64,000 nucleotides of DNA from Escherichia phage HMD-6. Under the pieces are notes generated by a model. That model saw nothing but the letters and a program-made list of their open reading frames with translations. It did not search any database and was not told where the DNA came from. The stretch lies in the sequence record PQ505080.1. One strand, given 5' to 3'. Shown one piece after another: positions 58,924-62,619 of this stretch. The position numbers and the translations under genes are program-made. The stretch's first letter is position 1, and each line of letters begins with the position of its first letter.

Positions 58924-59424
58924 GTGAAAATTAAGATCTTTGCTATTATTTTGAGCGCACTTTTATCGCTGCCTGTTGTTGCAGCACCAAAACAAAAAGT
59001 ATATCACACCTGCAAGCCATCGGATACTAAGGAGAACATTCTGGCATGCAATATCTACAGGGAAGCCAGAGGAGATGGCACGATGGGTATGTTGGCATCT
59101 GGGTTTGCCACACTAAACAGGAAATCTCACCCTAAATACCCAGACACTATAAGAAAGATTGTCTACCAACCTAACCAGTTTTCGTGGACAAACCACGGCA
59201 AAACTTTTAAGGTGACAGAAAAAGATTCATGGGATCACGCTAAAAGTCTTGCAAAGATGCTTCTAAAGGTCTATAATAACAACCATGTTGCATACATGGC
59301 TATGGATATAACAGGTGGAGCAACACACTATCATACAACAAAAGTACGACCGGAATGGGCAAAAAAGATGCAGAGGACAGCTCAATTCGGGAGTCATATC
59401 TACTACAAGGAGCGCAATAAATGA
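58924..59424 (+). CDS. secreted SleB-like cell-wall hydrolase
   Basis: 166 aa; Sec-type signal peptide (MKIKIFAIILSALLSLPVVAA); ACNIYREARGDG ... ATLNRKSHPKYPDTIRKIVYQPNQFSW matches the SleB/Hydrolase_2 core; GTG start after TGGAG. Confidence 0.6.
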   Translation: MKIKIFAIILSALLSLPVVAAPKQKVYHTCKPSDTKENILACNIYREARGDGTMGMLASGFATLNRKSHPKYPDTIRKIVYQPNQFSWTNHGKTFKVTEKDSWDHAKSLAKMLLKVYNNNHVAYMAMDITGGATHYHTTKVRPEWAKKMQRTAQFGSHIYYKERNK

Positions 59425-61403
59425 TTGTAAACAGTAATGAAACTAAAGCAGTGCTAACTGGGAATATGGAGGTCACAAGGGGATCAATTTCTCTGAATAA
59501 AGAGACTTTTGGGTTAATCATTAAAGGGATTTATGAAGATAAGGTGCTGGCAAGCTGCCGTGAACCAATCTTCAATGCTGTAGACTCCCATGTTGAGTCT
59601 GGACGGGGTGATGTACCGATCATTATTCACTCTCCTACAGATCTTGAACCCTACTTCTTTGTGCAGGACGTTGGCCTAGGCATGTCAGAAGAGATGGTCC
59701 GCAACACCTTCATGAACCTCGGTGAGTCAACCAAGCGCAATAGCAACGCTCTGGTTGGTAATAAGGGTGTTGGTTCAAAGGCCCCGTTCAGCATGGTAGA
59801 CACTTTCGATGTAATCAGTGTGCACAATGGTGTGGAAAGCACATATCTATTGTTCTTGGATCAGGGCATCCCAAATGTCACCAAGATCCGTGAGCGGAAG
59901 ACTGAAGAGCACAACGGGGTAAAAGTTCAGTTTCATGTTAAGAAAGAGCATGTTCTGAAATATCGCACTGCTATTGCATCATGTTTGCGCTATGCAAAAT
60001 TTCCGTTCACTGTCACCGATCCGATGACGAGCAAGATGCTGGAGGGAGACAAAGTAGAGGCGCAGTATTATTATGAAAAAGATGGTTGGAAGATGACCAT
60101 CCTGAAGGGCTATACCAGTTCTGACGAGAGTCGTGTGGTAATGGGTCACCAACCTTACCGTTCTAAGTTCCTGGAAACACTAACAGATTATCCTGCAATT
60201 TGTGTAGAGATCCCTATCGGAGATTGCAATATTAACCCAGGGCGTGAATGGACCATAGAAGGTCACGATGATGGTGGATTCCAAGAGCGTTTGGAAGCTT
60301 TTGTCAAAGAAGGCATTCGCCTTCGTGGAGCAGAAGTTGTTGCAGAACTAGAGACAGCAAAAACATCCTCAGAAGCACGCGAGATGATGAAGAACAGTGG
60401 AGTGTTCGGGCACATCTTCGGTAAGAATTTTATGTATGACCGCTGGGAAGAAACAGGGCTAGGGAATTTGGGGGACTGCGAGATCTTCGCTGGCGGCTTA
60501 AATAAAGGCCGCATAGGTTACGCCTGCTACGGAAAGGTAGAATTCTTACGGGGAGTTTATTTAGTATTTAACGACGGAGACGGCAAATATAACCGGAATA
60601 AGTGTAACTACTTAAGCGAGATCACCGGACGCAACGTTTTCTATTGCCGTAACACGGATCTGGTGAAAGAGTTTAAAGAGGCGGCACACCATCCGTTTTT
60701 TGCAGATACGGTCAAATTGTTATCGGAGCTTCCACGCCGACCTACGAAGAAAGGTGAAACCAAAACCCGTTACGAACCAGGTTATTGGGTTAAAAAACTT
60801 GAGAAGGATGGTTACTTCCGGCGTGAGCGTATTACTAAGGCAGAGTTCAGGAAGATTAAGCACTGCATACCGTATGAGGGGGATATCCAACGCGGAAGTT
60901 GTTGGCTAGGGCAGATGAGTAACATCTACCAGCAAAATTATGACCGTGTGCGTGCGGCACTCCGGATCCCTGAAGGTGAAGATCTGTACCTGGTATCAGA
61001 ATCTCGTCTGCTTTGGACTGATCCTAATTGCCAATATGTTACAGAGAAGAATGTGGAACATTTGCTGAAAGAGGATGCTTGGAAATTCTTACTGACTCGC
61101 GCAGCAAATGAAACTTCATATGACAGCCTGTACAGACAGTTAGGTAAAATTATACCCATGCAGGATTTTGGAAATTATCAGCCACATTTCCACAAGTGGG
61201 AAGGTAGCACCACGTGGAAGTATGGTGAGCTGAATCATCGTGCCAAAGTCTTAATCGCCAACCGAGTTAAGTGCGGGAAGGCCTATATTGCAAGATTGGA
61301 AAAGAAATATCCACTTTTAAAGCATGTAGGATTGAAATATTGGGACACCCCTGCTATGATTGAATACCGTGAACTGATCGATACAAAGAATAACATCAAA
61401 TAA
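59421..61403 (+). CDS. GHKL-superfamily ATPase, rIIA-like
   Basis: 660 aa; Bergerat-fold motifs: N-box EPIFNAVDSHVE, G1 VQDVGLGMS, G2 GNKGVGSKAPF; ATGA overlap with upstream gene; rIIA assignment rests on the GHKL domain and the downstream partner. Confidence 0.5.
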   Translation: MIVNSNETKAVLTGNMEVTRGSISLNKETFGLIIKGIYEDKVLASCREPIFNAVDSHVESGRGDVPIIIHSPTDLEPYFFVQDVGLGMSEEMVRNTFMNLGESTKRNSNALVGNKGVGSKAPFSMVDTFDVISVHNGVESTYLLFLDQGIPNVTKIRERKTEEHNGVKVQFHVKKEHVLKYRTAIASCLRYAKFPFTVTDPMTSKMLEGDKVEAQYYYEKDGWKMTILKGYTSSDESRVVMGHQPYRSKFLETLTDYPAICVEIPIGDCNINPGREWTIEGHDDGGFQERLEAFVKEGIRLRGAEVVAELETAKTSSEAREMMKNSGVFGHIFGKNFMYDRWEETGLGNLGDCEIFAGGLNKGRIGYACYGKVEFLRGVYLVFNDGDGKYNRNKCNYLSEITGRNVFYCRNTDLVKEFKEAAHHPFFADTVKLLSELPRRPTKKGETKTRYEPGYWVKKLEKDGYFRRERITKAEFRKIKHCIPYEGDIQRGSCWLGQMSNIYQQNYDRVRAALRIPEGEDLYLVSESRLLWTDPNCQYVTEKNVEHLLKEDAWKFLLTRAANETSYDSLYRQLGKIIPMQDFGNYQPHFHKWEGSTTWKYGELNHRAKVLIANRVKCGKAYIARLEKKYPLLKHVGLKYWDTPAMIEYRELIDTKNNIK

Positions 61404-61413
61404 GGAGACCAAG

Positions 61414-62619
61414 ATGATTTTCATCTACGAACATTTCAAAACCCGTAAAGAAGCACGAGACCGCCGTGCAGAACTTGAGAAGAAAGGTTTCACATGCGCT
61501 ATTGAGAAAGGTAACACAACCTGGACACTGGCAGTGGGTGCCCCAGAGGTGTTCGATCCTGACCGTGACAGCGTCTGCTACACCCGTGAGGATTTTGAAA
61601 CCCGTGAAGAGGCCCGTTTATTTCGATATGGGTTGGAAGATAACGGTAAGTACGCCATGATCCTAGACTTAGGTGAAGGTTCCGTTAAACGTTGGGGCGT
61701 GGTATACCCATTGTGTGTTGTTCACGATGTGGGGTTCACTGGGGTAGCAGTTAAGTCAGAAGAACCTTCGGTAGAAGTCAAAGACCCGGTGCTGGAGGTG
61801 GTGAGCAGTGTATCTCAGCAACAGACTCGAAGCATCGAGCCTTTGGTAGTTATTTGCGGAGAACTCCTCCAGATCACCTGCAACGAAGGTATTTTTGAAA
61901 TTCGCCGTAGCGAAAGTGAGGAAGTTTACCAGAAAGTCTTCGACCATATCTCTGTTCAGGAATATGACGAGGCAATTGGTGAAATCCTTATCTGGCTGGA
62001 ACGCAAGAATGAGTTCACTACACTGGCAGACAACCTGATCATGAAAGATGGTAAGCTCTACTACTACGGTGTAGAGATGCGATCTACCATTGCAAAGAAA
62101 ATTGAGAAAGATTATGCAGATGGAACACTGGATGACCGCTATGTGAAATTCCTAGTTCGCCTGTTACGCAATCCGTCTGCAAAATCTGTAAACATGCTCT
62201 ACGATTTTATGCAGGCAAATGACATTCAGATTGCAGAAGATGGTCGAATCATTTGCTACAAAGGGGTTCAGTTTAACGGCGACAAGTGGGTGGATTGGCA
62301 CAGTGGTAAAGTCCCACAATACCAGGGAGCTTTTGTATCCATGCCTCGTAACTTTGTAGAGGATGATCCGGAAGCTGCATGCTCTTATGGCCTGCACTGT
62401 GCCAGCAAAGAGTATGCAAAGAGCTACGGCACTGTGATGACGGTTATGGTTGATCCTGCCGATGTAGTCAGTGTACCTTACCAACACAACAGCGCTAAGT
62501 GCCGTGCATGCCGCTACGAAATCGTAGTAGCTCCAGAATCGCGCAAAGATGGCGACCCAATTGAGTACGTGGTTGACCGCGACGGTAATACTATCGACAT
62601 TATCTACGAGGAGGCGTAA
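61414..62619 (+). CDS. putative rIIB-like protein
   Basis: 401 aa directly downstream of and coupled to the rIIA-like gene; two tandem ~35-aa N-terminal repeats; call is positional. Confidence 0.3.
   Translation: MIFIYEHFKTRKEARDRRAELEKKGFTCAIEKGNTTWTLAVGAPEVFDPDRDSVCYTREDFETREEARLFRYGLEDNGKYAMILDLGEGSVKRWGVVYPLCVVHDVGFTGVAVKSEEPSVEVKDPVLEVVSSVSQQQTRSIEPLVVICGELLQITCNEGIFEIRRSESEEVYQKVFDHISVQEYDEAIGEILIWLERKNEFTTLADNLIMKDGKLYYYGVEMRSTIAKKIEKDYADGTLDDRYVKFLVRLLRNPSAKSVNMLYDFMQANDIQIAEDGRIICYKGVQFNGDKWVDWHSGKVPQYQGAFVSMPRNFVEDDPEAACSYGLHCASKEYAKSYGTVMTVMVDPADVVSVPYQHNSAKCRACRYEIVVAPESRKDGDPIEYVVDRDGNTIDIIYEEA

Follow-up and report, generated by a model that had tools for sequence, protein, structure and literature searches.

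The stretch of DNA considered here comprises 64,000 nucleotides of Escherichia phage HMD-6 (record PQ505080.1; hereafter the window, meaning this stretch at its full length), and the present data indicate that two adjoining genes on its plus strand very probably form the rII counter-defence module of a Vequintavirus, orthologous to rIIA and rIIB of phage T4, with a function that can be stated at the level of phenotype. Annotation of the locus already exists, its family is a classical one, and a pair 96-97% identical to it has been tested by experiment. The evidence consists of profile and pairwise matches of both products to the T4 proteins, conservation of gene order and of an ATP-binding domain, and the knock-down phenotype of the sister phage EdH4.

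Identity of the rII pair

Both open reading frames were confirmed, and the coordinates proposed for them in an initial annotation, made by a model from the sequence, proved exact:

59421..61403, plus strand: rIIA gene, 660 amino acids, stop included (phrog_612; similarity to T4 rIIA)
61414..62619, plus strand: rIIB gene, 401 amino acids, stop included (phrog_609; PF26926; similarity to T4 rIIB)

The same annotation had read the pair as rIIA- and rIIB-like, a reading open to checking by profile and BLAST comparison, and such comparisons bore it out. RIIA matched phrog_612, the PHROG to which T4 rIIA itself belongs (E 9e-250), with E 1.6e-124, residues 1-658 covering positions 1-724 of the 725 in the profile. 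By BLASTP its GHKL-type N-terminus was 28% identical to that of T4 rIIA (E 3e-21), an alignment confined to residues 1-190, the C-terminal two-thirds of the window protein giving no pairwise alignment. RIIB matched phrog_609, again the PHROG of its T4 counterpart, with E 1.3e-61 over residues 132-373, and its C-terminal core was 36% identical to T4 rIIB over 204 residues (E 7e-39; window residues 172-371). In addition, PF26926 (Phage_T4_rIIB) is recorded for a 98%-identical cluster representative and for all RIIB homologues in a large protein collection. The claim that the 401-residue protein bears no recognisable motif other than its N-terminal repeats must thus be withdrawn, as the rIIB core makes up its C-terminal 230-260 residues (PF26926, PHROG 609). 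T4 and the window agree in gene order, rIIA then rIIB, with a spacer of about 11 nucleotides in T4 (coordinates of record AF158101) and of 10 in the window, whereas the neighbours differ, being topoisomerase gene 60 and denB in T4 and a SleB-like hydrolase and a Pif1-like helicase in the window.

The window belongs to a Vequintavirus, an rV5/FV3-like myovirus of E. coli. The DNA of its rII locus is 98.9% identical to that of vB_EcoM_SYGMH1 (species Vequintavirus FV3), the rIIB gene is 98.5% identical to that of phage FV3, and 119 phage records match the locus at 90% identity or more. In many of these records the pair already carries GenBank labels of the rIIA/rIIB kind, namely “protector”, “lysis inhibitor” or “membrane integrity protector”. 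Sixteen “Campylobacter phage” records (MG0656xx; host Campylobacter jejuni) are 92-94% identical to the locus at 59421-62619, and these are probably mislabelled or contaminant coliphages.

Comparison with phage EdH4 and the counter-defence phenotype

In phage EdH4 (Vequintavirus murica), a sister species with the same module, RIIA is identical to that of the window at 638 of 660 positions (97%) and RIIB at 384 of 401 (96%), and the protein lengths, flanking genes and terminator are the same. None of the 22 substitutions in RIIA or the 17 in RIIB falls in the GHKL motifs, and two lie in the RIIB repeats. Adler et al. (2025) depleted the two proteins by CRISPRi-ART knock-down in T4, MM02, EdH4, SUSP1 and N4; the phages still infected Rex-free E. 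coli normally, but plated less well on cells expressing lambda RexAB (PMC11879866). In the near-identical EdH4 pair, the function of the module at the level of phenotype is therefore already established. Orthology to T4, together with the knock-down phenotype of EdH4, indicates that the window pair is very probably an accessory anti-Rex module, one that lets the phage grow on hosts with Rex-type abortive-infection systems. The literature (PMC8594841, PMC11879866, PMC7824862) bears out the remark that pairs of this kind are widespread and their mechanism little understood, the BASEL paper describing the rIIAB locus as “long-known yet poorly understood” (PMC8594841).

Every part of RIIA and RIIB is under strong purifying selection. 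The ratio of nonsynonymous to synonymous substitution rates (dN/dS) against EdH4 was 0.031 for the whole of rIIA and, by part, as follows:

rIIA GHKL and transducer-like domains (residues 1-290): 0.007
rIIA C-terminal half (residues 291-660): 0.058
rIIB repeats (residues 1-99): 0.041
rIIB linker (residues 100-142): 0.19
rIIB core (residues 143-401): 0.057

Domain organization of RIIA

RIIA can be divided into an ATP-binding domain, a second domain and a long C-terminal region, all on the plus strand:

59463..59990: Bergerat (GHKL) ATP-binding domain, about residues 15-190; approximate boundaries, from HATPase_c_3, motifs and the secondary structure of the model
59562-59585: N box, E48-x3-N52-x2-D55 (CREPIFNAVDS)
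59667-59681: G1 box, D83-V-G85-L-G87
59757-59774: G2 box, G113-N-K-G116-V-G118
59991..60290: second, transducer-like domain, about residues 191-290; approximate boundaries
60291..61400: lineage-specific C-terminal region, about residues 291-660; confident model, mixed alpha/beta and then helical

The N, G1 and G2 boxes had been recognised in the initial annotation, and they are borne out by the alignment of 26 RIIA homologues, across which the nine GHKL motif residues are invariant down to 18% identity, and by Pfam, in which HATPase_c_3 matches residues 50-147 above its cut-off (34.9 bits against 25; E 1.8e-8). The S103-T104-K105 triad is also invariant in this alignment, as are Y246 and the pair R275-E276 of the second domain. 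For the C-terminal 370 residues no relative was detectable, and this, together with the failure of the region to align with T4, is consistent with the account of Iyer et al., in which the C-terminal domain of the family varies strongly (PMC7824862).

Structural comparison of the RIIA model gave the following pairs of values:

TRAP1 (Hsp90): 18.3; 315
MORC2: 17.3; 263
Phage T6 topoisomerase II ATPase domain: 17.2; 266
ParE: 17.2; 273
MORC3: 16.8; 251
MutL: 16.3; 248
SMCHD1: 15.7; 257
Topo VI-B: 15.0; 295

A GHKL domain followed by a transducer is thus common to RIIA and the GHL-class ATPases (Hsp90/TRAP1, MORC2/3, type II topoisomerase, MutL and SMCHD1), but sequence identity to these proteins is just 9-17%, and none of them is related to RIIA in its C-terminal 370 residues. 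The initial annotation had considered that the domain might instead match a topoisomerase or MutL family complete with its partner domain. No such match was found, as Pfam gave neither Toprim nor MutL_C, nor CW or Hsp90; scores against NCBIfam families lay far below their cut-offs (17.9 bits against 455 for HSP90); and a single-sequence search of the PDB returned a best match at E 0.095 and no solved relative. Given the low identity and the missing partner domains, the likeness appears to lie in the mode of working and not in family membership, and in the model the resemblance of the GHKL module to topoisomerase, MutL, MORC and Hsp90 is one of fold only.

Among the alternatives to a counter-defence module, the one that survives best, though unlikely, holds that RIIA is a DNA-manipulating GHKL enzyme of the topoisomerase, MutL or MORC kind, that the pair acts in replication or recombination, and that Rex sensitivity is a side effect of altered DNA intermediates. 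It gains some support from position, the rII genes lying directly upstream of a gene for a Pif1/Dda-like helicase, with methylase, primase-helicase and DNA polymerase following (the last three read from the closest annotated genome), and from the helix-turn-helix of DNA-binding type in T4 rIIB. In addition, RexA is reported to bind DNA in the title of a cited paper, and the EdH4 annotation carries the note “putative DNA-binding rIIA protein”. However, the low family scores and the 9-17% identity apply to the DNA enzymes too, and Pfam finds in RIIA no Toprim, DNA-gate, MutL endonuclease or CW/chromatin-reader domain. Further, five phages, EdH4 included, can do without the rII genes on Rex-free hosts (PMC11879866), and what looks like a natural IS2 insertion interrupts rIIB in phage BP9.

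The N-terminal repeats of RIIB

RIIB consists of two repeats, a linker and a core, encoded on the plus strand:

61420..61539: repeat 1, residues 3-42, beta-alpha-beta-beta; invariant R11, A14, R15 and W37
61579..61710: repeat 2, residues 56-99, beta-alpha-beta-beta; invariant F61, R64, E66, A67, R68, F70, D85, R93, W94 and V96
61711..61839: acidic linker, residues 100-142; predicted disordered, with a predicted local distance difference test score (pLDDT) of about 26; length-variable in the alignment
61840..62616: conserved core, residues 143-401, common to T4 rIIB (PF26926, alignment, pLDDT)

Tandem N-terminal repeats had been noticed in the initial annotation, and several measures uphold them. 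Residues 6-25 align with residues 58-77 at a score of 44, reached by 0 of 2000 shuffles (mean 20, standard deviation 3.8); profiles of the two repeats built from eight relatives align over 36 columns with an hhalign probability of 95.4% (E 1.8e-8); the repeats can be seen in the DNA as well, at a spacing of 159 nucleotides (repeat family D2); and the AlphaFold model places a beta-alpha-beta-beta unit at 3-42 and another at 56-99, with a low-confidence loop of 13 residues between them. Judged from the sequence, the repeats are a real duplication, and they are kept in relatives down to 36% identity. Beyond that the module is restricted to its own lineage at single-sequence sensitivity. An exhaustive phmmer search of 1.84 billion representatives returned that lineage and one spurious repeat protein, and tblastn against a phage collection returned 117 Vequintavirus records only. 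The spurious protein, a Fibrobacter “Fib_succ_major” repeat protein (P0138), was rejected because four poor matches, one per repeat copy, add up to its score. A second homologue search using the family alignment gained almost no new diversity.

It has been possible to read these repeats as a genuine SPOR domain that binds denuded glycan strands of peptidoglycan. RIIB would then act at the envelope as a “membrane integrity protector”, possibly in concert with the product of the SleB-like hydrolase gene just upstream. Pfam SPOR (PF05036) scores 23.5 bits on the isolated N-terminus (residues 8-42; cut-off 21) and matches four of eight RIIB relatives, the orthologue in phages YP-6 and ECML-10 has been named a “SPOR domain-containing protein” by NCBI's pipeline, and the gene whose end overlaps the rIIA start, here and upstream also in 36%-identity relatives, encodes a secreted cell-wall hydrolase. 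However, on the whole of RIIB the SPOR score falls to 19.3 bits, below the cut-off, and the match covers profile positions 12-49 of 76, that is, one repeat and an incomplete domain. SPOR itself is built of two tandem repeats of about 35 residues. A single RIIB repeat corresponds to the helix-1/strand-2/strand-3 part of the profile shared by FtsN, DamX, RlpA and CwlC, and the SPOR structures of CwlC and RlpA resemble it weakly, with structural scores that are not significant. RIIB also has neither signal peptide nor transmembrane anchor (Kyte-Doolittle maximum of 1.52 over 19 residues; N-terminus MIFIYEHFKTRKEARDRR) and is therefore expected to be cytoplasmic, apart from peptidoglycan. Moreover, T4 rIIB performs the same job with a helix-turn-helix at the repeat position, and 48%-identity relatives have no hydrolase neighbour. 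A canonical SPOR function was rejected on account of the missing export signal and the half-domain match, and we consider an envelope role of this kind quite improbable. By sequence, the likeness of the repeats to SPOR appears to be confined to a small beta-alpha-beta-beta unit present in half of that domain, and peptidoglycan binding is unlikely.

Modularity of RIIB relative to T4

The first hundred or so residues of RIIB thus differ in kind from those of T4 rIIB, the former being two beta-alpha-beta-beta repeats followed by a disordered linker of 43 residues and the latter a helix-turn-helix. The T4 N-terminus (residues about 5-45; AF158101 2284-2404, minus strand) matches many helix-turn-helix families, including resolvase-type ones, with HTH_7 at 26.2 bits against a cut-off of 23.8, whereas window RIIB matches no helix-turn-helix family in Pfam. 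As the helix-turn-helix lies outside the Pfam rIIB core, its absence does not exclude membership of the rIIB family. The difference instead suggests that RIIB is a conserved core joined to an exchangeable N-terminal module. It is conceivable, although we regard it as doubtful, that RIIB is a modular adaptor in which a conserved effector core is joined to an interchangeable “address” module at the N-terminus. In T-even phages this module would be the helix-turn-helix, and in Vequintavirus and the relatives at 36-49% identity it would be the two duplicated beta-alpha-beta-beta units, cytoplasmic and half-SPOR-like.

The same comparison bears on the proposal that RIIB is a transcription factor tuning phage gene expression, with RIIA as its ATP-dependent regulator. 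Iyer et al. (2021) classed the T4 rIIB orthologues as specific transcription factors (PMC7824862), and the HTH_7 match and others at the T4 N-terminus accord with that. In the window, however, beta-alpha-beta-beta repeats stand in place of the helix-turn-helix, so that the model of a DNA-reading head cannot be transferred, unlike the conserved core and the Rex phenotype. We hold this proposal to be very improbable for the present protein.

The core of RIIB

The core carries the motifs NPSxK (253-257), CSxGLH (323-328), DPADVVSVP (347-355) and KCRxCRY (362-368), and the RIIB alignment, T4 included, contains 48 invariant columns. In the AlphaFold model, built with 21 sequences, mean pLDDT is 72, and core residues 143-397 are confident (mostly 80-95). 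PDB sequence and Foldseek searches gave the core no solved relative by sequence or by fold. That the core might be an ADP-ribosyltransferase-fold enzyme modifying a host or defence component is scarcely credible, for although it holds invariant polar residues (H328, S353, D350, R312, K362 and R364), Foldseek matched it to CNFy at E 0.47 and a probability of 0.23, its profile found nothing among PDB sequences and Pfam, and neither an H-Y-E nor an R-S-E catalytic triad could be made out.

Several further observations concern rIIB. The conserved C323, H328, C363 and C366 (window 62380-62511; CSxGLH and KCRxCRY) are candidates for a metal (Zn) site; in T4, Met takes the place of C363, and a Cys stands two residues beyond the His. 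Phage BP9 (PP488543) matches just the first 71% of the rIIB gene (window 61414-62274), the match ending beside an IS2 “InsA” feature. From its sequence this looks like a natural IS2 insertion disrupting rIIB in a Vequintavirus, consistent with rIIB being dispensable on laboratory hosts. A 498-residue protein from a 3.3-kb ENA contig (P0005) is 100% identical to 55% of RIIB and fused to TPR repeats, for which chimeric assembly or a miscalled gene is the likeliest explanation. Finally, phrog_609 (“RIIB lysis inhibitor”, 1055 columns) also matches the GHKL N-terminus of RIIA, with E 1.3e-23 for the window protein and 1.6e-58 for that of T4, at profile positions 19-310 and 751-1049. The profile therefore either mixes RIIA-like with RIIB sequences or holds fusions, and could cause rIIA genes to be mislabelled as rIIB.

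Genomic context

The rII genes lie in a run of four tightly packed plus-strand genes, arranged head to tail as SleB-like hydrolase, rIIA, rIIB and Pif1-like helicase, with the following accompanying features on the same strand:

58888..58903: terminator-like GC-rich hairpin, CCCCGCTTCGGCGGGG followed by a T-rich tail (pattern scan)
58924..59424: SleB/CwlJ-like cell-wall hydrolase, 166 amino acids, GTG start (Pfam Hydrolase_2, E 2.7e-19; PHROG 938 endolysin)
61404..61407: ribosome-binding site GGAG of rIIB, directly after the rIIA stop and 6 nucleotides before the rIIB ATG; junction TAAGGAGACCAAGATG
62619..63989: Pif1/Dda-like superfamily 1 helicase, 456 amino acids (Pfam PIF1, E 1.6e-33; PHROG 325 Dda-like helicase)

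The stop codon of the hydrolase overlaps the start codon of rIIA (ATGA), and that of rIIB overlaps the helicase ATG (TAATG). Between rIIA and rIIB there is no overlap, the junction reading TAA-GGAGACCAAG-ATG with a spacer of 10 nucleotides. The initial annotation had called the pair translationally coupled; coupling is plausible from the short spacer and from the GGAG that follows the rIIA stop, but the two genes do not overlap. The hydrolase has a strongly hydrophobic N-terminus, a signal peptide or signal-anchor (Kyte-Doolittle maximum of 2.34 over 19 residues, at residues 3-21).

The hairpin marks the upstream end of the run, and the equivalent site in EdH4 is annotated as a putative terminator. 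By pattern scan, terminator-like sites were not above chance in the region (6 found against 6.6 expected), and a promoter scan yielded 19 sites against 12.1 +/- 3.8 expected, which is insufficient to assign a promoter to the operon. Relatives at 48% and at 36% identity preserve the order rIIA, rIIB, Pif1-like helicase, their rIIA and rIIB genes abutting or overlapping, and a Pif1-like helicase follows rIIB in every relative examined. The SleB-like hydrolase is kept upstream in the 36%-identity relatives only.

Just upstream of the hairpin lie genes for a MoxR-like AAA+ ATPase of 394 amino acids (57300-58484; phrog_1297) and a conserved 126-residue protein of unknown function (58494-58874; phrog_12370), both of which also precede rIIA in the relatives at 48% identity. 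The closest annotated genome has a gene labelled holin some 8 kb upstream of the SleB-like hydrolase, on the other strand. GC skew is negative at 47400-54800, where the long open reading frames at 52177-54726 are on the minus strand; the remaining window is transcribed rightward. No tRNA genes or tandem repeats were found in the whole 64-kb window.

A tentative model for the rII module

The data permit a tentative model of how the module may act, its steps drawn from fold and architecture; taken jointly they are a possibility that we would not rate as probable. RIIA may be an ATPase of the GyrB/Hsp90/MutL/MORC type, soluble or peripheral and composed of a Bergerat domain and a transducer-like domain, which most likely dimerises upon ATP binding and cycles as a clamp or switch, as its structural relatives do. 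The lineage-specific C-terminal half of RIIA could provide the binding site for a target or partner. RIIB would supply the conserved effector core (the Phage_T4_rIIB domain) together with the interchangeable N-terminal module, and this module, predicted to be cytoplasmic, would most plausibly tether the complex to nucleic acid or protein rather than to peptidoglycan. Acting together, RIIA and RIIB may prevent or mask the infection signal that allows RexA to open the RexB channel.

Several points weigh against this interpretation. The RexAB phenotype comes from EdH4 and not from the present phage. ATP-driven dimerisation, an RIIA-RIIB complex, N-terminal tethering and action upstream of RexB are steps suggested by fold and architecture. 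The RIIB model is moderately confident (its mean pLDDT being the 72 given above), and for its core there is no structural relative that could guide thinking about function. In addition, the T4 rII proteins are classically described as membrane-associated. By hydropathy, neither RIIA nor RIIB of the window has a signal peptide or transmembrane segment, so that any membrane association would be peripheral.

The rII locus has a celebrated history and a mechanism still unsolved; it is now recognised as a widespread anti-RexAB module and, in T6, as the trigger of a bacterial gasdermin system, RIIB of that phage being toxic alone and setting off a Lysobacter CARD/gasdermin defence (PMC10312443). The copy in the window adds nothing in itself to this picture. 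The gain is a modest one, namely a domain map, in which RIIA is a GHL-type ATPase module with a private C-terminal half and RIIB a core with a swappable N-terminal module, and the exchange of helix-turn-helix for repeats at the RIIB N-terminus. Purifying selection on the ATPase motifs and the repeats makes both defined targets for mutagenesis in a group of phages with genetic tools, such as EdH4 and the Vequintavirinae phage Bas54, for which a transposon essentiality map exists (bioRxiv 10.1101/2025.11.20.689424). If RIIB is indeed an adaptor, its address module would set the ligand of the protein and could decide which abortive-infection systems a phage neutralises, and it could equally decide which host sensors detect the phage, for example the CARD/gasdermin system triggered by T6 RIIB.

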